Of a stretch of 64,000 nucleotides of DNA, positions 2,100 to 44,831 are shown one piece after another. Source of the DNA: Mobula hypostoma. Its lineage: Eukaryota. A program made the position numbers and the translations under genes. The stretch lies in NCBI RefSeq assembly GCF_963921235.1, contig NC_086097.1:16182001-16246000 (forward strand), read 5' to 3'. The notes under the pieces are model-generated. The model had not been told where the DNA came from. It did not search any database and saw nothing but the letters and a program-made list of their open reading frames with translations. Every line of letters starts with the position of its first letter. Positions within the stretch are counted from its first letter, which is position 1.

Positions 2100-3345
2100 G
2101 TAAGTTTCAAATCCTTGGAGGAAGAATTCAAGGTAACAAGAGCCAGAGAAGTGCTACAGTATAGGGACTCAAGTGACCCAAAGGTGGCTAGAGCAGGGAT
2201 CCAAGTGAGGACTGGCAGGAAGTGGAGGGCAGAGGAAGCTGTTCAGGAGGCAAAGGCAAGGTGCATCACAGGAGGCTGGTGGGAGTGGTCACACGAGGTC
2301 GAGCTGGGCTAGGATCCTTTCCAACTCCCCAAATGGACACCAGAGGGAAGGAAAGGCGTCGTCTAGTTCAGGAGGAGGTGACAGCAGTAGGGGAGGAGAT
2401 GAGAGCCTGCAAGGCAATGGGAATGAAGCAACAGGGAGCTTGGACAAGATGGGAGAATGCGGTTGAGAGGAAAGTGACCTGGACTGATCTTTGGAAAGCC
2501 GAACCACACCGCATCCAATTTCTCATCCAGGCAGTGTACGATGTGCATCCAAGCCCATCAAACCTGCACACATGGGGCAAGGCAGAGTCATCTGCGTGCC
2601 CACTGTGCTCCAAGCAAGGAACCCTGGAGCACATCCTCAGCGGCTGTGCAAGGGCACTTAGTGAGGGACGGTAACGACAATGAGGAAGCAGTGTGCATGT
2701 GGCAAAATCTGCAAGAACGATCGTGGCTTGAAGGTCCACCAAGCGAGGATGAAGTGTTTGGCGGGAGCAGGAGCAGCACAACACGCAGGTGTCCAACCTA
2801 GTGAGACGAAGGAGGGGCCAGGCCCGGAGTCACCCCATAGTGCCCAGAACCTCCAAGTGTTGCAAACTAATCCCTCTAACATGAAGTCTAACAGGAGGCG
2901 GATCAAATGGCCTGCAGCTAACATGACTTCACTGTGGAAGCAGTTCGATGAAGATGTTAACCAAATTCTGGAGGCAACGGCGAAGGGAGGGGTTGATAGG
3001 AAGCTGCAAGCCATGACAACAATTATTGTCCCAGTGGAGGTTGGTTGTAGGGGATTCGTAGCCCGTTCTTTAGTTACAGCCTTCAGCATTTTGGGCATCA
3101 AGGGAGAGAGGAAGAGGAGAGCCATCCGCAGTACCACAGATGCAGCAGAGAGGGCCTCAAGATGGCTATGGCTCAAAAGAGGGGAGCCATGGAGTCATAA
3201 GTAGCTAGCCATCTGGACACAAGCTGGGGTCTGATCAGCCCTGGCTGGGTCACCTGGAGGAGGTTGTATGATGTTGAAAGACCCAAAACACCCAATGATT
3301 CCAGGAACATCACTGAAGATGTGTCCAGAAGCATCAATAGATGTA
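2100..3345 (+). mobile_element. Hero-like (RLE-type, R2 superfamily) non-LTR retrotransposon derivative, rearranged and internally deleted
   Basis: CCHC knuckle CPLCSKQGTLEHILSGC (2222-2674), N-terminal-type finger CACGKICKNDRGLKVHQARMKC, and RLE C-terminus PVEVGCRGF...AERASRWLW (2680-3204). Confidence 0.8.
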
Positions 3346-5945: not shown

Positions 5946-6218
5946 TAACAAGGTAGATTGTGAGGCTGAGTACATTTTGTTATATTAGGAGACATTCAAT
6001 AGTGTGAGAGAAGCTGGTGCTTGAGTCTGGCGGGTCATGTTGCTAGGGTCATTCAGGGGTTATGAAATTATGCATAGCATATTTATTGATTAACTAAAGT
6101 GAGAACCAGTTTTCAGGTAAAAGAATCTGTTCATTCTTTAACTTCCAACTGGTACTTTGTGGCTAGTGAACCCAGTCATTGAAATAACACAGGGAAAAAC
6201 AATAGATGAATGTTGCTA

Positions 6219-6353
6219 AACACAAGAGATTCTGCAGATGCTGGAAATTTTGAGGAATACACAAAGTGCTGGAGGAAACCAACAGGTCAGGCAGCAGCTA
6301 CGGAGGGGAATAAACAGTTGACATTTTGGGCTGAGTCCATTCATCAGGACTGA
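6219..6353 (-). mobile_element. Penelope-like terminal repeat fragment with degenerate hammerhead motif
   Basis: Same repeat as the ends of the 10435-11581 element. Reverse complement of 6315-6352 reads cagtc-ctgatga-atggactcagccc-aaaa-tgtc-aactg. Confidence 0.7.
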
Positions 6354-7307
6354 TGAATGTTCCTGCTATTAGCACTTTATTAAATGTGTATCACAGCTCA
6401 GGTGACACACACAAAAATTCACTGCTCAGGTGAGATGTTTTGTCACTTAACCTGGTTAGTTGTAAATTCATGGAGTCATGAATATAGTCAATACTTGTAA
6501 CAAAAAGTTATCTGGCTTTTAGAATTGGTAGATAGATAGATAAATACTTTATTGGTCCCAAAGGAAATTACCGTGTCACAGTAGCATAACAAGTGCACAG
6601 ATATACAAATATTAGGAGAAAAGTAAGAAACAATAAAAAAATAAGTTACCTCAAACAGTCCAATAGGAGGAGGCCATCACTTTCCCAACTATGGGTTGAT
6701 TTATTATAGTGCCTAATGGCCAAGTGTAAAAATGACCTCCTATGGTGCTCTTTGGTACTATTGTTGAATATGCAAAGCAGTCCTGCTAGTTGGGATGTGC
6801 TACCAATGTAAATAAGTAATTCTGCAAATTTACCTGACAATTGTCCAAATTAAATTGGTGATTGTAGCAATTGAAGCTGCAGTTAATTGTTCATTGCTAT
6901 TTTGTGTTGAAGAAGTATAAAACATGCTGTCAGGAGAATGCAATTCTCTTGGATTCTCCTGAACATTCTGTCTCCTGGAGGCTCACTGTGTGAATAAACA
7001 CTTTCATATTTCCTAGTTACAGCTTCCATGTGGCTCAGTTTTAGTTCTGTCACAAGACCTGCTTTCAAGCTTTTGTATTTTTTGCCCAGTGGGAGGGGGG
7101 AGAAAAGAAAGTGAGTCCAGAGTGTGTGAAGTCTTTGAATTTGTTGGCTGCTTTAGAGGGGTAGTGCGAAGTATAGACAGAGTCCATGGAGGAGAGGCTG
7201 GCTTCTGTGATGTGCTGAGTCATGTCTAGAATTCTCAGAATCAGGTTTATTATCACTGGCATATGTTGTGAAATTTGCCATCTTTGCAGCAGTTGTACAA
7301 TGTAATA

Positions 7308-9639: not shown

Positions 9640-10070
9640 GCTTGGCGCAATTTTTTAGGTTTTTTTGTGCAAGTGTAGGGGATTTGGGGGTTGATATTTT
9701 TGTTGCCATTTGGCACGTTTTGTTAGTTTTTTTGTGCGGGGTGTTTTGGGTTTGATGCTCTTATTGCCATTTGGTGCTTTTTGTTAGTTTTTTTTCTGTG
9801 GTATGTTTTGGGTTTGATGTTCTTGTTACCATTTTGTTAGTTTGGTTTTATTGTGCAGGGTGTTTTGGGTTTGATGTCTTGTTGCCATTTGGTGCTTTTT
9901 ATTAGTTTTTTTGTGTGAGGATGTTTTGGGTTTGATGTCTTGCTGTCTGACATGTTTAGTTAGTTTTTTTGTGCGGGGTGTTTGGGTTTGATGTTCTTGT
10001 GGGGTTAGGTGCATTTTGTTCATTGTTTTGTGGGTGGGGGGTGTTTGGGGGCTAATGATCATGTTGCCGT
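9640..10070. repeat. T/G-rich ~60-bp minisatellite, about 6 degenerate copies
   Basis: Recurrent unit gtgttttgggtttgatgttcttgttgccatttggtgcttttttgttagttttttttgtgcggg, followed by a LINE-like 3' tail ending at ~10225. Confidence 0.8.
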
Positions 10071-10434
10071 TGGTTTTTTTTGTGCAGCAGGGATGAATTT
10101 GAAGTTTTTCCTTGAACGATTTCTGTTGTTTTCTTTGTTTCATGGCAATTTGGAGAAGACAAATCTCAGAGTTGTATATTGCATACATACTTTGATAATA
10201 AATTAACTTTTGAACCTTTGAACCTGACATTGAGTGCAAGGGTTGTTGGTGTGACACGATTCAATTAACTAATGTATCTCAGTCCTGCACACCTTCTCAT
10301 CATCTGAAATTCAGTCAACAATAGAAGTATTATCAGCAAATTTATAGATTACTTTTGAGCTGTGCCTAGCCACACAGTCATGGGTGTTGAGAAAGTAGAG
10401 CAGTGAACTAAGCACATATCCTTGAGGTGCAACA

Positions 10435-11581
10435 CACACAAAATGCTGAAAGAACTCAGCAAGTCAGGCAGCATCTATAGAAAGGAGTAAACAGTTGACA
10501 TTTCAGGCCAAGACCCTTCTTCAGGACTGAGAATGAAGTGGGAAGGTGCCAGAATAAAAAGTGGGGGAAGGGGAAAGAAGCTAGCTGGAAGATAATAGGT
10601 GAATCCAGGTGGGTGGGAAAGATCAAGGGCAGGAGAAGAACTGAATATGATAGATGACCCCAGCAGATTCACAGGTGGAGTGTTGCCTCACATGAAAAGA
10701 ATGTGAGGCCCTTAATGGAGGTGAGGGAAGAAGTGTGTGGGCACTTAGGCCACTTGTCAGGATAAGCACTGGAGGGAAATTAGCGAGGAGGGAAAAATGG
10801 ACAAGGAAATCGTGTAGGGAGTGATCCCTGTGAAAAACAGAGGGGGGAGGAGATATGTTTAGTGGTAGGATCCCTTTGGAGATGGCATAAGTTGCAGAGG
10901 ATATTGTATTGGATGTGGAGGCTGATGATGTGTTAGGTAAGGACAAAAGGGATTATCTCTATTACCGTGGCAGGAAGATGGGGTGAGCTCGGATATACTG
11001 GAAATGCACCTCTGTGCCATACCCCACAAACAGGATTTCTTGGTGGCCAAACATTTCAATTCCAATTCCCATTCCTGTCCAACCTGTTGATCCATGGCCT
11101 CTTGTGCCAAGATGAGGCCACCCTCAGGACGAAGGAGCAACGCCTTATACTGTATTCCATCTGGGTACCTTCCAACCTGATGGCATAAATATCGATTTCT
11201 CTGTCCAGTGAATAAATCTTCCTCCCTAACCCCCCATCCCTCCATTCCCCATTCTGACCTTTCACTTCTTGTCACCTGCCTATTACTTCCCCAGGGTCCC
11301 CTTTTCCTTCCCTTTCTCCTACTGTCCTCTCTCCTCTCCTATCAGATACTTTCTTCTCCAGCCCTTTACCTTTCCTACCCACCTGGCTTCACCTATCACC
11401 TTCCAGCTAGCCTTCTTCCCCTCGCCCCACCTTTTTATTCTGGCATCTTCCCCCTTCTTTCTCAGTTCTGATGAAGGGTCTTGACCCAAAATGTTGACTG
11501 TTTACTCTTTTCCATAGATGCTGCTTGACCTGCTGAGTTCCTCCAGCATTTTGCGTGCGTTGCTTTGGATTTCCAGCATCA
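10435..11581. mobile_element. Penelope-like element with an inverted 5' segment
   Basis: GIY-YIG C-terminal remnants (VAKHFNSNSHS, LRTKEQRLI, LGTFQPDGINIDF) at ~11040-11200. The same terminal repeat occurs on - at 10435-10640 and on + at ~11340-11581. Confidence 0.8.
10492..10529 (-). ncRNA. Minimal type I hammerhead ribozyme motif, Penelope-associated; best-preserved copy
   Basis: Reverse complement: CAGTC CTGAAGA A GGG TCTTGG CCT GAAA TGTC AACTG = stem I, CUGANGA, stem II, GAAA, UH, stem I'. Confidence 0.6.
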
Positions 11582-12093
11582 CATTTGTGATTATCATTTA
11601 GATGCACCAGTGTGGATTATCAGTGAGGTGGAGATGTTATTTGCGATCTGGACAGATTATGGTCTTCTGGTGAGGAAGTCAAGGACCCAACTGCAGAGGG
11701 AGGTACAAAGGCCCAGGTTTTGGAGCTTTTCAATCAGAACCGTAGGAATGACTGGGTTAATTGCTGAGCTGTGCTCAATAAAAAGCAGTCCAACATAAGT
11801 GTTGGCATTGTCCAGATGATCCAAGGCCACATGAAGAGCCAATGAGATCGCATCTGCTGTAGACCTATTGTGGTGATAAGCAAATTACAATGAGTCCTGG
11901 TCCTTGGTGAGACAGGAGTTAATTCTCTTCAGTCTCTTGCAGTTTTGGGCACAGCAGTTGCCCATACCAAGCTGTGAAGCAGCTGCAGGGTGAATATGTT
12001 ACAAATAAGGAATATGAAAACAGAATGTTGGAAGTACTGAGATCAGCTAGTATCTGTGGGAGGGTGACAGTGCAGATGATGATCTTTTATTGT

Positions 12094-18162: not shown

Positions 18163-18398
18163 ATAGAAACATAGAAAATAGGTGCAGGAGTAGGCCATTC
18201 GGCCCTTCGAGCCTGCACCGCCATTTATTATGATCATGGCTGATCATCCAACTCAGAACCCCGCCCCAGCCTTCCCTCCATACTCCCTGATCCCCATAGC
18301 CACAAGGGCCATATCTAACTCCCTCTTAAATATAGCCAATGAACTGGCCTCAACTGTTTCCTGTGGCAGAGAATTCCACAGATTCACCACTCTCTGTG
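18163..18398 (-). mobile_element. Young CR1 LINE 3' fragment
   Basis: Nearly identical to 21560-21793, with the same microsatellite tail. Confidence 0.9.
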
Positions 18399-21551: not shown

Positions 21552-23052
21552 AGAAACATAGAAACATAGAAAATAGGTGCAGGAGTAGGCCATTCGGCCC
21601 TTCGAGCCTGCACCGCCATTTATCATGATCATGGCTGATCATCCAACTCAGAACCCCGCCCCAGCCTTCCCTCCATACTCCCTGATCCCCATAGCCACAA
21701 GGGCCATATCTAACTCCCTCTTAAATATAGCCAATGAACTGGCCTCAACTGTTTCCTGTGGCAGAGAATTCCACAGATTCACCACTCTCTGTGTGAAGAA
21801 GTTTTTCCTAATCTCGGTCCTAAAAGGCTTCCCCTTTATCCTCAAACCGTGGCCCCTTGTTCTGGACTTCCCCAACATCGGGAACAATCTTCCTGCATCT
21901 AGCCTGTCCAATCCCTTTAGGATTTTATACGTTTCAATCAGATCCCCCCTCGAACTTCTAAATTCTAACGAGTACAAGCCCAGTTCATCCAGTCTTTCTT
22001 CATATGAAAGTCCTGCCATCCCAGGAATCAATCTGGTGAACCTTCTTTGTACTCCCTCTATGACAAGGATGTCTTTCCTCAGATTAGGGGACCAAAACTG
22101 CATACAATACTCCAGGTGTGGTCTCACCAAAGCCTTGTACAACTGCAGTAGTACCTCCCTGCTCCTGTACTCGAATCCTCTCACTATAAATGCCAGCATA
22201 CCATTCGCCTTTTTCACCGCCTGCTGTACCTGCATGTCCACTTTCAATGACTGGTGTATAATGACACCCAGGTCTCGTTGCACCTCCCCTTTTCCTAATC
22301 GGCCACCATTCAGATAATAATCTGTTTTCCTATTTTTGCCACCAAAGTGGATAACTTCACATTTATCCACATTAAATTGCATCTGCCATGAATTTGCCCA
22401 CTCACCCAACCTATCCAAGTCACTCTGCATCCTCTTAGCATCCTCCTCACAGCTAACACTGCCACCCAGCTTCGTGTCATCCGCAAACTTGGAGATGCTG
22501 CATTTAATTCCCTCATCCAAGTCATTAATATATATTGTAAACAACTGGGGTCCCAGCACTGAGCCTTGCGGTACCCCACTAGTCACCGCCTGCCATTCTG
22601 AAAAGGTCCCGTTTATTCCCACTCTTTGCTTCCTGTCTGACAACCAATTCTCTATCCAAATCAATACCTTACCCCCAATACCGTGTGCTTTAAGTTTGCA
22701 CACTAATCTCCCGTGTGGGACCTTGTCAAAAGCCTTTTGAAAATCCAAATATACCACATCCACTGGTTCTCCCCTATCCACTCTACTAGTTACATCCTCA
22801 AAAAATTCTATGAGATTCGTCAGACATGATTTTCCTTTCACAAATCCATGCTGACTTGTCCGATGATTTCACCGCTTTCCAAATGTGCTGTTATCACATC
22901 TTTGATAACTGACTCCAGCAGTTTCCCCACCACCGACGTTAGGCTAACCAGTCTATAATTCCCTGGTTTCTCTCTCCCTCCTTTTTTAAAAAGTGGGGTT
23001 ACATTAGCCACCCTCCAATCCTCAGGAACTAGTCCAGAATCTAACGAGTTTT
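21552..23052 (-). mobile_element. Young 5'-truncated CR1 LINE with open RT ORF (21648-22841)
   Basis: YLDFQKAFDKV, GVPQGSVLGP, KFADD motifs in a 397-aa open frame. Microsatellite tail; flanked by gaaat/gaaat. Confidence 0.95.
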
Positions 23053-32110: not shown

Positions 32111-32499
32111 CTGTCAACAACAAGCAAGTTGTAGACATAGTTGCATGGTGATATTTTTTATTATTGGTTAACCAATTCCAATGCACATTTATGATTGAAA
32201 TTATATTGTCAGGCTTTTGACCTGAAACATTAACTTGTTTCTCTTCCCACTGATGTGGCCTGAGTTGTTTAGTATTCCCAATGTTTTCTGTTTTTATTTT
32301 AGATTTACAGCATTCCACTCTGTTATGTTATTCTCATGCAAATTACATTCTTCTGCTTTACAGTTGATGGGAAGGGTATTAATAACATGGAAAGGCAGAC
32401 AACATATTTAACATCAAAAAGGGGACGCAATTCACTTCACTGCCATTTATCCCCAGGTTACTAAATCCATGTCACCTGAAAATATATTTTATTGCCAGG

Positions 32500-36447: not shown

Positions 36448-36683
36448 TGCAGCGGTAGCCGGGAGGCACACAGCACATCTTTAAGAAAAAAGCCAAAACA
36501 AACATGCTAATTAATTAGGTGCCGCCCGACACATAATTGTTGGCCCAGATCAGAGATGATGCAATCGGAAATCGGCACTGATCTGGACCGACAATTACGT
36601 GCCGGGCAGCACCTAATTAATTAGCATGTTTGTTTTGGCTTTTTTCTTAAAGATGTGCTGTGTGCCTCCCGGCTACTGCTGCA
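36448..36683. repeat. Long inverted repeat, ~100-bp arms
   Basis: gtagccgggaggcacacagcacatctttaagaaaaaagccaaaacaaacatgctaattaattaggtgc and its exact reverse complement; the inner arms are imperfect. Confidence 0.9.
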
Positions 36684-37784
36684 CCCCTGCATGCTTTGCG
36701 GCAATGTATCGGTCGGCAGCCCAGAGAGTGGGGGCCACTGCACCACCCAATCTGCGACGACTCAGTCTAACACACCATCATCAGTGTGCTCGGCGCTGTC
36801 TTCCCGATTCTGGTAAGTGATACTAAACTGTACATACATTATTTCTACTTTATATCGGCTGTGTATTTTTACGTGTTATTTGGTATGATTTGGCAGCTTC
36901 ATAGCTTAAAGGTTACTGGAGAGCGCTTGCGCCATGTTTTTGCTGACGGCGCTTGCGTGAGATTTTCGCTACGGAGAACAATGCAATAATGATTGTGGAA
37001 AAGTATTTCTACTTTATATAGGCTGTGTATTTATCATATCATTCCTGCTTTTACTATATGTTACTGTTATTTTAGGTTTTATGTGTTGTTTGGCATGATT
37101 TGGTAGGTTATTTTTGGGTCTATGAACGCTCACAAAATTTTCCCATATAAATAAATGGTAATTGCTTCTTCACTTTACGACATTTCGGCATAGGAACCTT
37201 ATCCAACCTTCGGATGGCGGGGGAAACCTGTACCTGTGATATTAAACCTGATTCTGATCATTTCTTTCTTAAAAAAAGGAAGTAGAAATTCGCCTTTAGT
37301 TACAAGTGCCAAAATAATTAGCCCACTCCCACTTATTGCCCTTCCCCATAATTATTGATTTCAGTGCTTGAGCAATAGCTCATCTATATGGACCAAAGTA
37401 GTTCAGTCACATAGAATGCATTTGTATTGTCGGCGACAAGTGGGGATATCACATAACTACAGAAGAATTAGTTCCTTGTGATAATGGTTTAAGCAGACCT
37501 GCTCAATGTGCAGAGCCTTATTTTGTAGTTTGCATTCTGTAACGTGCATTTCTGCAAATAGTTTTTGGAACATAGTAAGAAAGTTTTGTTTCCCTCACGT
37601 GATTACATGAAATAAAAATGCTTAAACATAAAGGCAATGATTACTATTTAAAGCAATAACTTTTTCTGTCTTTGTGCTTTTGTCATGTAGACTCGTCTGA
37701 TTCTTTTATTTTCCTTCCATCAATCATGGCTTGGTATTGGACTGAAAGCTGTCCACCTTATGCTCTCTGAGGAAGACACTGACC

Positions 37785-38067
37785 ATGCACAGCCTTGCTG
37801 GAGAACGGCCAACAGGGCAGGATGCTGATCCCTGTTCTCGCCCCCTTTCTCAAGCCCGAGTTTATTTGGAGCAAATTCGGAGCCGTGTGTCTTCCAGCCT
37901 CCAGGAGGGTCAGCAGCCTGCCAGAAATACAGCCTGCAAACGAGACTACTTGGTTGATGCAGCAAAGCAGATCCGCTTAGCACTGGACAGGGAGGTTAAT
38001 GAGGATTATGAAGCTGCATTTAACTATTACAAGAATGGCGTTGATCTGCTCTTGAAGGGAGTGCAAG
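37785..38067 (+). CDS. RPS6KL1: Ribosomal protein S6 kinase-like 1, first coding exon (MIT domain N-half)
   Basis: accATG with an upstream in-frame stop at 37743. [52 protein letters not shown]. Donor AAG|GTATAT, phase 1. Confidence 0.9.
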
Positions 38068-38203
38068 GTATATGTTTTGCTTAGAACTCCTAACTGTTTC
38101 ACTCCAAAATAGTTTGTGAGCCAGCTAGATTAGATAATTAATGAATAACAAGATTGGTGTATGTTGGTGGTCATACTGTAAGTTGTTTTGTCAGTGGGTG
38201 CAC

Positions 38204-38440
38204 AGACACAAGAAAGTTTGCAGATGCTGGAAATCCAAAAGCAACCCGTACAAAATGCTGGAGGAACTCAGCAAGTCAGGCAGCATCTGTGGAAAAGAGT
38301 AAACAGGCTATGTTTCAGACAGAGGCCCTTCATCATGTCCTGATGAAGGGTCTCGGCCCAAAAGATTGACTGTTTCATCTTTTCCATAGATGCTGCCTGG
38401 CCTGCTGTGTTCCTCCAGCAGTTTGTATATGTTACTTTGT
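38204..38440. mobile_element. Inverted pair of Penelope terminal repeats
   Basis: The arms mirror around cccttcatca-tgtcc-tgatgaaggg; hammerhead-like motif at 38337-38372. Confidence 0.75.
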
Positions 38441-40146
38441 CAGCAAGTGAAATGGTCCAAAATGAAAAGCACTTCAGATTCTATTATCAGCATAAGCCAT
38501 CTTCTTTAAAGTGATATGTTTGCAGCTGTTTTAAAGCAGAATCCCCTTGTATACAACGAGATTTATTTTTCACTTGTTTCATCTTCACAGTCTCATTTAT
38601 TAAAAACTTCATATATTATAGGGCTAACTGACTTCTGTCAACATAATAACTTTTGATCACCGGTCTCCAAGTTGGGCATTCTGGTTAAATTAAAAAGCTG
38701 TTAGAAGTTAGAGCCCCAGCTAAGGCCAATTGTGAACCAAGGTTTTGAAATAACTGATCCAGGATTAGGGATAGAGGGCTGGTGTGTGGTCCTTGGGTTG
38801 CAATAATTGAGCATCATACTTATCTAAGGGTTGTTTTATTCCCTTGTAGGAGTAATATAAATGAGTTTAGAGTCCAGCTGAAGTGTCTTGACCAAAATCT
38901 TAACTGTCCATTTCCTTCCATAGATGCTATCTGGCACACACGGTTCCTGAAGTGTGTTGATCCAGATTTCTGGATCTGCGGTCTCGTGTGTTTCCACTGG
39001 GTTAGTTCTGATAGTTTTCATAGTGAGCAGCTTGATAACATCTTTGTAAATTTGTGTATTTAAAAATGGCTTCTTCTCGTCTTTCTTACGATTCCTAAAT
39101 GGTCATTGAACCCATGAACACTACCTCACTTTTTAAAAAAATATATATATCATTTCTGGTTTTGCACTTAAATCTATTCAATATAATATATATACCTAAT
39201 TGATTTACTGATTTTTTTTCCCCCTTTTCTATATATCATGTATTGCATGGAACTGCTGCTGCTAAGTTAACAAATTTCATGGCACAGTGTTCAGTAAATT
39301 GCCATGAAGTAGATGCACGTAGGACTGAAGGATATTAATGAACAAACACCACTCAGTATTTTAATATAAGGAGATTTGGTTTATGGTGGAGATAAGAACT
39401 GTAGAATGAAAAATATCCAGAATGGTTGTTTAGAAAAAATGAAGCATTTTGACAACAGATGTTCACAATGTAGAGTCATAGATTTGTACTGCATAGAAAC
39501 AGATCCTTCAGCCCAGCATATCTCAGCTCAGCCATCATCCTATCCATATTTATCTGTACTAATCCCACATGCCTGCAGTTATTCATACTCTTACTTGGTG
39601 AAATAGCTGTACAGATACCTTTTAAATGTTGTTACTCTTCCTACTTCCACCATCTCTCCTGTGGTTCATTCCAGATACCAACTAGAAAACGAATCTCTCC
39701 AGGGTAGTACTTGGTGACAGATACGCACTTCAATAATAAATTTATTTTGAACGTTGAACTTTGAACTACTCATTATTTGGTTGAATCCTGAATCTAGATA
39801 GAAAATTTGTACAGTTTCACTTCTGGTGATTGAGTTCTTTCAAGGTACCTGGCTGTGTCATCTTGGAAGTTGGAGGACCATTATGGCAAGCTGATTAGGA
39901 CTGACATTTCTCTATTTTGTCTTGGAAATGAAGCAGGAAGAACATTATTAATTTCTCGTATTCTCTGTGTTGAGGGCTTTGTTGGTTTTGAATAATGGAT
40001 ATTGGTACTGGAGAATTTCAGGTTTGCAACGTTTTATACCTAAAGCCAAGTGAGCTCATGAGAAATGAGCTTAAAAGCCCAACCCTCACACTTCATTCAT
40101 GTACTTTGAGTTAACTTTCCCTAGATTGTACAGTAAAGAAAAAACA

Positions 40147-40705
40147 TAAACATGAGAACGTCTGCAAATGTTGGAAGTCCAAAGCAACAAATACAAAATG
40201 CTGGCAGAACTCAGCAGCTCAGGCAGCATCTATGGAAGTGAGTAAACAGTTGACACTTCGAGCTGAGACAAGCCTTCATCAGGACTGGAAAGGAAGGGGA
40301 AAGTAAGGGGGAAGAGAAGTAGGACAGCTAGAAGGTGATAGATGAAGGCAGGTGGGAAGTTAAGGTAAAGGGCTGGAGAGGAAGGTATCTGGTCGGCAAG
40401 GAGAAAGGGAAGGAAGAGGAGACCCAAGCAGAGGAGATAGGCAGGTTGGAATGGGAATCAGAATTAAAATGTTTGGCCATTGAGAAGTTCCACTTTTGGA
40501 GGATGGAGTGGAGGTACTCGATGATGCAGTCCCCAATTGATGATGGGTCTCCCAATTTAAGATGGGTCTCAATTGGTGAGACGGGTCTCTCCAATGTAGA
40601 GGAGGCTACGTCGGACACAATAGACAACCTCAGCAGATTTGCAGGTGAAGTGTTGCCTCACCTAGAAGGACTATTTGGGGCCCTGAATGGAGGTGATAGA
40701 GGAGG
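40147..40705 (-). mobile_element. Penelope-like element 3' fragment
   Basis: ORF 40328-40627 with GIY-YIG remnants (IETHLKLGD..EYLHSI..MAKHFNSDSHS) and terminal repeat with hammerhead-like motif at 40247-40287. Confidence 0.75.
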
Positions 40706-41746
40706 TGATTGGGAATAAAGGAGGCCTTTTCTGGTTGGCTGCCAGTGACTAGTGGTGTTCCTCAGGGGTCAGTATTGGGACTGCTACATGTCACATTGTT
40801 TGTCAATAATTTAAATAATGGAGTTGATGGCTTTGTGGCAAGGTTTGCAGATGATACGAAGATAGGTGGAGGGGTAGGTAGTGCTGAGGAAGCAATGCAA
40901 TTGCAGTAGGACTTAGACAAATTAGAAGAATGGGCAAATAAGTGGCAGATAGACTGCAATGTTGGGAAATGTATGATAATGCATTTTGTTAAAAGGAACA
41001 ATAGTGCAGACTATTATTTAAATGGGGAGAAAATTCAAACATCAGAGGTGCAAAGGGACTTAGGAGTCCTCGTGCAAGATTCCCAGAAGGTTAATTTACA
41101 GGTTGAGTCTGCGGTAAAGAAGGCAAATGCAATGTTGGCATTAATTTCGAGGGGAATAGAATATAAAAGCAAAGAGATAATGCTGAGACTTTATAAGGCA
41201 CTAGTCAGGCCACTCTTGAACTATTGTCGATAGTTTTGGGCCCCATATCTCAGAAAGGATGTGTTGGAGAGAGTCCAGAGGAGGTTCATGAGGATGATTC
41301 CGGGAATAATCCGGTTAACGTATGAGGAGCATTTGGCAGCTTTGGGCCTGTACTCACTAGAATTTAGAAGAATGCGGGGGCATGTCATTGAACCCTACTG
41401 AATCTTGAGAGAACTAGATAAGGTGGATGTGGAGAGATGTTTCCTATGGTGGGGCTATCCAGAACCAGAGGGTGCAGCTTCAAAATTGAGGGTGACCTTT
41501 AAGAACAGAGGTGAGGAGGAATATTTTTAGCCAGTGAGTAGTGAATCTGTGGAATGCTTTGCCACTGACTGCATTGGAGGCTACGTTCGTGGGTATATTT
41601 AAAGCAGAGATTGATGGTTTTCTGATTGGTCAGGGCATCAAAGGAGGCAGGTGTATGGGGTTGAGTGGGATCCAGCTATATTGGAATGGCAGAGCAGACT
41701 CGATGGGCTGAATGACCTATTTCTGCCCCTATGTCTTATGGTCTTG
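40706..41746 (+). mobile_element. CR1 LINE fragment
   Basis: SGVPQGSVLG, RFADDTK, RLYKALVRP and a CR1 3' tail. Confidence 0.9.
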
Positions 41747-41918
41747 TAGCACTTTGGCCACTTTCAGGGAAAACCGTTCTGTCCATTGCACTTCTTAAAG
41801 CATTAGCAGAGAATTGAACGATTGATGCAACTGCGGAAGCATATGGGCCGTTCAACCTAATTCATTTACTATTCTAGCTTGACCAACTTTTATTATTCTG
41901 CCTTTTTTTTAATTGCAG

Positions 41919-43177: not shown

Positions 43178-43482
43178 GTGTTGGCGCGTGGCCAAATGGT
43201 TAAGGCATTCGTCTAGTGATCTGAAGGGTGCTAGTTCGAGCCTTGGCTGAGGCAGCATGTGTGTCCTTGAGCAAGGCACTTAACCACACATTGCTCTGCA
43301 ACGACACCAGTGCCAAGCTGTATGGGTCCTAATGCCCTTTCCTTGGACAATATCAGTGGCGTGGAGAGGGGAGACTTACAGCATGGGCAACTGCTGGTCT
43401 TCCATACAACCTTGCCCAGGCCTGCGCCCTGGAAACCTTCCAAGGTGCAAATCCATGGTCTCATGAGACTAACCGATGCCTA
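43178..43482 (+). mobile_element. tRNA-derived SINE
   Basis: Box A tggccaaatgg, box B agttcgagcc, core gtgtccttgagcaaggcacttaacc; TSD tgtccacaacc / tgttcacaacc. Confidence 0.85.
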
Positions 43483-44519
43483 TGTTCACAACCAACCATG
43501 CCCAGTGACCACAATGTCAATGCTACTGTTGGGTTAACATGCAATTGATTCGTAAGACTCTTGTAATTAAACTGAAAGTTTTAGTGCAATTTCATTGTCT
43601 CTCAAGTGAAATCCGTTGAGTTGTTTATTGACTTTCACACAGCTATTGCTAATTTTCAAAAACTCCTTAGACATTTTCCATGCTAATTTGATTTGAGTTG
43701 GATGGTTATGTTGCAAGTGGAATGTATGCTAGATTTTTGTTACTATTTAGACTTGAAACTTTTCAGTCAGTAAAAGCTGTTCGTTCTTTCCCTTTAACTA
43801 TAAAACCATTTATTAAGTTTCTGTGCAAATTTAAAGAAATGTTTCCTCTGACTTTCCCTTATAGATTGCTGTAGTCTGTTTCCATTTATTACCATAACAG
43901 AATTTGTGATCTACCCACAAGTTCTGCTTTCCCAGAGCATTTTTAGCTGAGTGGTGCAGTCATGTAGCACAGAAAAATGCTCTTCTGCCCACCATCAAGC
44001 ACCCATTTGCATCAATCTTCTTTTATCTATTCTTATCACCTCCCCCCCCCCAAAGATTTACCACTCACCTACAAGTGTTTACTGTGGTCACTTCACCTAC
44101 TGACCCATGTGTCTTTTGGAGGTGGAAGGAGACTGGAGCACCTGGAGGAAATGATGCAGTTACAAATAACGTGCAAAGTCACCAAGATAGCACCAAAGGC
44201 TGAATGAGACTGAGCTCTCAGGAGCTGCAAGCCAGCAGCTTTCCCAGCTGTATCACTGTCAGAGTCTATTCCCAGAATATCCTTATTTCAAAATTCCACT
44301 GTATCTTCATTTTTGCTCCGTCATTTAGTGGACACTTCTCAAAACCCTTCATGGAGTAGATGTGGGAGAGGAAAGAGCTCTTTTTGCTTTCCAAAGTACT
44401 CGGCTTAGAAATTGAAAATTGGATCATATTAAACGGTAGAATAAGGGATATAAATGGCCCACTTCTGTTCATATATTCCCCTAGGTCATGTGCATCTAAC
44501 CATTGCTTGTAATAGTAAA

Positions 44520-44831
44520 GTAAAGGTATCCGTTAGTCTTGCGAGACCATGGATCTGCGCCTGGAAAGTCTTCACTCTCCAGGGCGCAGGCCTGGGCAAG
44601 GTTGTATGGCAGACCGGCAGTTGCCCATGCTGCAAGCCTCCCCTCTCCACGACACCAATATTGTCCAAGGGAAGGGCATTAGGACCCATACAGCTTGGCA
44701 CCAGTGTCGTCGCAGAGCAATGTGTGATTAAGTGCCTTGTTCAAGGACACAACACGTTCCCTCGGCTGGGGCTCGAACTCACGACCTTCAGGTCGCTAGT
44801 CCAATGCCTTAACCACTTGACCACGTGCCCA
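44520..44831 (-). mobile_element. tRNA-derived SINE, same family
   Basis: Reverse-complement match to 43178-43482; perfect 15-bp TSD gcttgtaatagtaaa (44505-19 and 44832-46). Confidence 0.9.

Follow-up and report, generated by a model that had tools for sequence, protein, structure and literature searches.

The seven hammerhead-like motifs present in the 64-kb window (the whole stretch of ray DNA analysed here) are, with good confidence, decayed minimal hammerhead ribozymes derived from the end repeat (pLTR) of a likely Penelope-like retrotransposon (PLE) of rays, each copy here carrying changes predicted to silence it. Judged from their letters, they are most likely dead leftovers, every copy being mutated and likely disabled, rather than working ribozymes. 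The original prediction had described five such stretches, and their positions and strands were all found to be correct when checked against the sequence. Its count has to be raised to seven, given that two copies had been missed (38298-38340 on the minus strand and 38871-38907 on the plus strand), and its layout running from CAGTC to ACTG holds as a consensus but is matched letter for letter by none of the five copies. The seven copies fall into five insertions (Table 1).

Table 1. Positions of the hammerhead relics, the repeats carrying them and the host intron within the window
Positions	Strand	Feature	Details
6217..6352	-	Short solo pLTR copy with tail, beginning at stem I	13-nt TSD-like pair with one mismatch
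6315..6352	-	Minimal hammerhead relic at the 5' end of the short solo copy	G12>A, 10.1 G>T, 1.1 mismatch
10429..11005	-	Inverted arm of an insertion: linker and GIY-like coding remnant, internal deletion, 3' UTR, tail-less pLTR	Coding remnant read by eye
10492..10529	-	Best-preserved relic, with all 11 invariant core bases	15.2 U (AUGU), G-U at 10.1-11.1, C-A mismatch at 2.1-1.1
11006..11580	+	Direct arm of the 10429 insertion: endonuclease-like C-terminal remnant, 3' UTR rich in pyrimidines, pLTR, part of a tail	
11463..11500	+	Relic	G12>A, 15.2 U, 17 U; ancestor predicted to be cut at 11495/11496
32217..32312	+	Weak pLTR-like relic, older and more divergent, with no CUGANGA box	Profile E 4e-4
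38068..41918	+	GT-AG intron splitting the MIT domain	RPS6KL1
38194..38340	-	Sixth copy, tailed and antisense in the RPS6KL1 intron: left half of a head-to-head palindrome	Profile match 38238-38340
38335..38439	+	Right palindrome arm, no tail, sense in the RPS6KL1 intron	
38871..38999	+	Seventh copy: short, older or of another subfamily, beginning at stem I, sense in the RPS6KL1 intron	
40141..40713	-	5'-truncated long copy with tail: GIY-YIG-like remnant, pLTR bearing the motif, internal deletions	Borders on a LINE RT remnant

Census of the family in the window

A profile search of the window recovered five copies of a single repeat family at E-values of 1e-35 to 3e-41, figures that are circular since the profile was built from the same copies; the best match in the reversed window reached an E-value of 2.9. 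The two missed copies and the weak relic at 32217-32312 came out of this search as well. A family-independent descriptor of the minimal hammerhead, a kind of search that the original prediction had named as a check, yielded one strict match (the 10492 copy) and two decay-tolerant matches (10492 and 11463), against a mean background of 0.005 and 0.01 matches, respectively, in 200 dinucleotide shuffles. Rfam covariance models gave no match over the window at the gathering threshold, and the two matches obtained between 10300 and 11700 at E-values up to 10 do not correspond to hammerheads. Pattern scans of metagenome contigs, viral contigs and prokaryote genomes returned no loci with the motif, as expected for a vertebrate repeat. 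The copies of the family are spaced 1.9-28 kb apart and no direct tandem copies appear among the repeats listed for the window, whose composition is 42% GC with a CpG observed/expected ratio of 0.32. A weaker trace of the family lies at 12018-12071 on the minus strand (E 0.35).

Four of the seven copies reside in one intron of RPS6KL1 (38068-41918), the 38337 and 38871 copies in sense and the 38238 arm and the 40247 copy in antisense orientation. The identification of this gene, and the sense orientation proposed for the 38337 copy, were borne out by the exon at 37746-38067, which is 97% identical to stingray RPS6KL1 and 93% identical to sawfish RPS6KL1, and by eight exon blocks of the RPS6KL1 protein that map to the plus strand from 37749 to 61829.

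Several other repeats share the window. A MITE-like palindrome at 36448-36683 consists of 113-nt arms that are 92% complementary and separated by a 10-nt spacer, with no visible likeness to the hammerhead family. Identical 236-nt LINE-like ends occur at 18163-18398 and 21558-21793, 3395 nt apart, reflecting either a very recent duplication or an assembly repeat. Tandem GT-rich units of about 56-62 nt each occupy 9666-10109, a 174-nt inverted pair (93% complementary, 1144 nt apart) spans 43260-44751 with related arms at 43183 and 47927, and a 179-codon open frame on the plus strand (2665-3201) that starts with a zinc-knuckle-like CxCxxxCxxxxxxxxH pattern adjoins LINE-like pieces.

Ancestral motif and CpG decay

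The ancestor proposed originally, with GAAACGUC and stem I, was recovered as an identical 38-mer when a CpG-aware consensus was built from the seven copies. This consensus displays the traits of the minimal hammerhead, namely an extra base between positions 9 and 10.1, a G10.1-C11.1 pair and a palindromic 15.2-16.2, and it carries the G12-A13-A14-A15.1 box together with U16.1. Its stems I and II form with pair probabilities of 0.89-0.99. Across the seven copies, 80.6% of the paired cells are compatible with pairing versus 16-45% in slid controls. No compensatory change was detected at any of the nine pairs in the seven copies, and pairing was no better than in column shuffles (226/500), a result that has to be weighed with the fact that all copies descend from one or few masters.

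Both TG and CA are seen among the seven copies at four dinucleotides of the motif (loop II, 11.1-12, 15.2-16.2 and 17-1.1). The CpG decay that had been suspected is apparent in the five copies first described, in which 19 of the 40 positions at CpG sites depart from the consensus, 18 of them as C>T or G>A, versus 9 of 150 elsewhere, although this enrichment is partly circular in that the sites were defined by the same TG/CA pattern. The CpG-calling rule also fired on weak patterns at four sites outside the motif, which were dropped before the consensus was folded.

An independent check was obtained by comparing 361 nt around the 11463 copy with the contigs of four public runs from three organisms at a likeness of at least 80%. 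This stretch was matched by 143,234 of 25,044,394 contigs in X1, which may be the source sample, 117,208 of 20.9 million in X9, 141,292 of 23.8 million in X15 and 14,701 of 1.7 million in X10; contigs do not equal copy numbers, and X10 is an RNA run by guess, hence no evidence of expression. The first of these figures, from a ray, agrees with the claim that many ribozyme relics exist in the genome, within the same limit on what contigs count. At the sites where the reference holds the decayed letter, the ancestral letters were present in all four runs, with shares, depth-weighted and biased towards the reference, of 24-39% for C15.2, 27-43% for C17, 35-52% for the loop II C and 26-35% for G12; the share of C2.1 was 81-93%. 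All four predicted CpG sites are among the best-supported alternative letters in the contigs. Upstream of 11511 the majority letters of loose ends include C15.2 in all four runs, three rows at 11509 being without it, and G12 is found in four of the seven loose-end majority rows.

State of the individual copies

No copy of the motif is intact. At least one invariant base is broken in six of the seven, the exception being the 10492 copy, which keeps all 11 and carries three weakened pairs. The box C3-U4-G5-A6-N7-G8-A9 is complete in five copies, the same five recognized at first reading, and the G12-A-A-A box occurs together with U16.1 in two, U16.1 itself being kept in all seven. The ACGU palindrome has not been kept by any copy, the 15.2-16.2 dinucleotide reading TG in four, CA in one and something else in two, and the 2.1-1.1 pair is lost in four of the seven. 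An extra A between positions 9 and 10.1 is common to all, and the 10.1-11.1 pair is G-C in four, G-U in two and broken in one. Among the individual lesions not given in Table 1, the sixth copy (motif 38298-38340, minus strand) has C3>A, a change that overlaps the palindrome junction; the motif at 38337-38372 (plus strand) has G12>A and GA at 15.2-16.2; the 38871 copy has lost three core bases (G12>A, U4 and A6); and the motif at 40247-40287 (minus strand) has A15.1>G and a 3-nt insert in stem II. The damaged GAAA box ascribed to the 38337 copy is real but not peculiar to it, since G12 is replaced by A in four of the seven copies and A15.1 by G in the 40247 copy. G12 has been described as the general base of the hammerhead (PMC6155905).

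The 38337 copy constitutes one half of a palindrome of about 100 bp (a 98-nt inverted repeat) with a folding energy of -136 kcal/mol and a z-score of -13.7. The pair probability of its ribozyme stems is 0.0 within the palindrome versus 0.87-0.97 when folded alone, and a transcript through this region is predicted to form a long hairpin in which the ribozyme would be buried.

Element anatomy and relation to Penelope-like elements

In three copies the repeat adjoins coding remnants. The long copy at 40141-40713 reads VVY..LLYIGET at 40572-40661 together with an AKHFNS..HS run, both identified by eye, so that endonuclease-like sequences (VVY..LLYIGET and HFNS..HS) lie just upstream of the repeat. 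These peptides appear similar to the GIY-YIG endonuclease of PLEs. Searches of the coding remnants with word-index protein searches, phmmer (1.84 billion proteins), the ESM Atlas and the PDB returned nothing relevant, and the same was true of Pfam whether or not stops were read as X, seven fragments giving one unrelated match at an E-value of 0.23; as the protein queries are short and frameshifted, these blank library results are weak. With the libraries blank, the PLE label rests on the architecture and the motif.

In every copy the point of truncation lies 3' of the RT core. The remnant of the RT-EN linker is decayed, with a single Cys visible; an extra zinc finger in this linker separates Neptune from the Penelope/Poseidon clade (10.1101/2021.04.23.441226). 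The region 10429-11580 forms one unit in which the inverted and direct arms are joined head to head, and in both inverted pairs of the window the tail is found on one arm only, the tails of PLEs being 30-40 nt long. The 3' loose ends of the contigs fall into two groups about 35 nt apart. Candidate TSDs flank two of the five loci and were not found at the other three: a 13-nt pair with one mismatch at 6205-6217 and 6352-6364 around the 6217-6352 copy, and an exact 8-nt word at 38187 and 38436 flanking the palindrome. The Penelope context originally assumed is upheld to the extent that truncated, inverted, one-tailed units match described PLE insertions, the label being architectural and the motifs read by eye; a Penelope-like retrotransposon of rays is the likely parent on these sequence grounds.

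Some further observations concern the surroundings of the copies. A LINE RT remnant at 10330-10428 and 11600-11884 apparently hosts the inverted-pair insertion (RT-like frame at 11660-11884 on the minus strand, read by eye). A 10-bp inverted repeat at 6343-6364 is centred on stem I of the 6315 copy; it was considered as a fold-back and set aside because it overlaps the probable TSD and may derive from the target site. Within the repeat, the contigs are best conserved not at the ribozyme but at a predicted stem-loop downstream of it (11511-11553), which is a candidate signal for protein binding and for the start of reverse transcription. The rise in depth at 11513-11551 was rejected as a truncation point, given that the loose ends there run on into hammerhead sequence of other subfamilies.

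Copy starts at stem I

At three of the five loci (6315, both 38337 arms and 38871) homology to the long copies is lost at stem I, within 6 nt. Under uniform truncation such clustering has a rough P of 6e-4 to 1e-5, for a window chosen after the fact. All seven clear copies retain sequence upstream of the cut site and none begins there. As the part of the motif upstream of the cut site is retained whole in each of them, the RNA templates had probably not been cleaved, and the starts at stem I together with the lack of any at the cut site suggest an origin of the copies from uncleaved RNA, with stem I as its possible beginning. The sole opposite-strand joint among the 15 contig joints listed, beyond which there are at least 1599 more, sits at C3 and was seen in at least 16 contigs (5, 2, 9 and 0 by run), and at least 139 contigs of X10 have loose ends at C3 that read CAGTC after unrelated AT-rich letters. 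An inverted CAG/CTG microhomology opens the motif, and a CCCUUC run in the native sequence upstream is able to pair with GAAGGG. When native upstream sequence is included, stem probability falls from 0.9 to 0.08-0.88 depending on the copy and on the length, a drop that any pyrimidine tract might produce. The 5' strand of stem I conforms to YYANWYY, an initiator-like pattern.

A joint reading of these observations is put forward as a tentative and somewhat doubtful one. The 5' strand of stem I would be the 5' end of the RNA, and the short copies would be strong-stop cDNAs, made by reverse transcription from the first tail and run-off on an uncleaved transcript. Palindromes would be products of sense RNA, formed through joining or fold-back at CAG/CTG, and not of antisense templates. 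The CCCUUC-GAAGGG pairing would keep the downstream ribozyme off, leaving the promoter-proximal copy as the only one to fold. For D. virilis, an internal promoter has been described from which the transcript begins within the upstream pLTR (PMC2377424). This precedent makes an RNA start within the pLTR plausible by analogy, its position not being fixed thereby.

Proposed mechanism and alternative explanations

The mechanism favoured here begins with a parent motif that would cut its RNA after GUC, either as a dimer or with the help of protein. The element protein would prime reverse transcription at two internal starts about 35 nt apart, giving rise to copies with or without a tail; priming at both ends of a DNA break would generate head-to-head inverted pairs with one tail each, and early termination would leave 5'-truncated copies. 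These insertion and tail steps are drawn by analogy with the findings on the anole PLE. Methyl-CpG deamination would then hit the four CpGs of the motif. As three of these (11.1-G12, the central CG of ACGU and 17-1.1) occupy critical positions, this decay would disable the motif and silence most copies with time.

An unlikely alternative is that the amplifying masters were already non-catalytic, for instance through G12A, the motif having been kept as a promoter, an RNA start or a protein-binding site. Four of the seven copies carry A12, as does some two-thirds of the contig depth, where A is the reference letter, and G12, at the share given above and as G in four of seven loose-end rows, leaves room for some G12A masters that may have amplified. 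In addition, insertion in vitro does not require the anole ribozyme (PMC11167929), and the Naiad group of PLEs thrives although it has no hammerhead (10.1101/2021.04.23.441226). However, the dinucleotide at position 12 also reads TG in two copies and CG in one, the signature of an ancestral CG, and the share of G is depressed by reference bias, with the other three CpGs behaving alike.

The opposite possibility, that one copy is still active or exapted, be it the 10492 copy or a sense copy cutting the RPS6KL1 pre-mRNA, is regarded as extremely unlikely. The 10492 copy owes its candidacy to its full set of 11 invariant bases and to being the sole strict descriptor match, and two sense copies do lie in the intron; but 10492 is weakened by AUGU, by G-U at 10.1-11.1 and by C-A at 2.1-1.1, and its partner at 11463 is on the opposite strand, so that no single transcript would hold both. 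Both sense copies of the intron are without G12, that at 38871 lacks three core bases and that at 38337 would, by prediction, be trapped in a hairpin; conservation of the motifs is no better than expected from neutral decay. It is also very improbable that the short copies represent a separate self-spreading non-autonomous family (SINE, MITE or retrozyme-like) instead of by-products of the full element. Three of the five loci are indeed short with a common start, and animal retrozymes have been reported as pLTR-derived (10.64898/2026.07.22.740005). Against such a family, no direct tandem array appears among the repeats listed for the window, the copies being 1.9-28 kb apart, the short copies vary in tail use and subfamily, and the same repeat continues into coding remnants in three copies.

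Comparison with known elements

That PLEs carry minimal hammerheads has been known since 2014 (Cervera and De la Pena, PMC4209133). In that work two minimal hammerheads pair through the palindromic core, monomers remain uncut and dimers are cut weakly; the statement that these motifs cleave as dimers is thus correct as regards a low activity of dimers and trimers, and too strong as regards its extent, the monomer showing none. Cleavage of dimers is also attributed to Lunse et al. 2017, as summarised in PMC6765202. The ray family shares with the metazoan motifs of PMC4209133 the type I topology, a 5-bp stem I, the extra base between 9 and 10.1, the G10.1-C11.1 pair, a palindromic 15.2-16.2 without a real stem III and high variability, as well as an organization mostly in solo truncated copies and in opposite-strand pairs a few hundred bases apart. 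It differs in stem II, of 4 bp in the ray versus 7-8 bp in Schistosoma, and CpG decay of the DNA copies accounts for its variability without invoking the RNA-to-RNA steps floated in that paper.

Another close likeness is provided by Poseidon_Ac of Anolis (Frangieh et al. 2024, PMC11167929), whose protein nicks both strands and extends them, initiates reverse transcription at a pair of internal sites delimiting the tail and is required for its ribozyme to cut, the latter being dispensable for insertion in vitro. As is likely in the ray family, its pLTR hammerhead lies about 100 nt upstream of the two RT starts and uncleaved RNA is the main template, and the two groups of ray 3' ends about 35 nt apart resemble those two starts. 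Poseidon_Ac is intact and assayed, whereas the ray copies are fragments; in the ray consensus, unlike Poseidon_Ac, the frame from the in-core AUG stops after 22 codons and a longer open frame begins further downstream. The insertion units described by Arkhipova et al. 2013 (PMC3846280) likewise comprise a head-to-head inverted arm and a tail on one arm, with a short TSD of the kind for which candidates flank two ray loci, and one-armed tails are also given as PLE insertions in 10.1101/2021.04.23.441226. The junction of the short ray palindrome is at the 5' strand of the hammerhead stem I, whereas the available text of PMC3846280 favours self-priming on an antisense template and makes no mention of the hammerhead. 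Non-LTR retrozymes (10.64898/2026.07.22.740005) resemble the ray family in their type I hammerhead and pLTR origin and include one chondrichthyan positive; they are defined by at least two tandem units with complete ribozymes, while the ray window has no array and no intact motif.

None of shark, Callorhinchus, Leucoraja or Squalus is entered in supplementary file 2 of PMC4209133, and a search of the openly accessible literature found nothing on hammerheads in the PLEs of chondrichthyans or on copies whose 5' ends lie at stem I. The ray family is an ordinary member of a known PLE kind and extends a known PLE feature to a ray. Most genomic copies would be harmless, as catalytic positions are struck by CpG decay and the motif is buried wherever copies form palindromes. 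If 5' ends were to pile up genome-wide at stem I and not at the cut site, the ribozyme would play little part in template making, and both the RNA start and the origin of the inverted junctions could be read straight from the genome. Rays offer a very large natural data set for the question of what purpose the hammerhead serves in PLEs.
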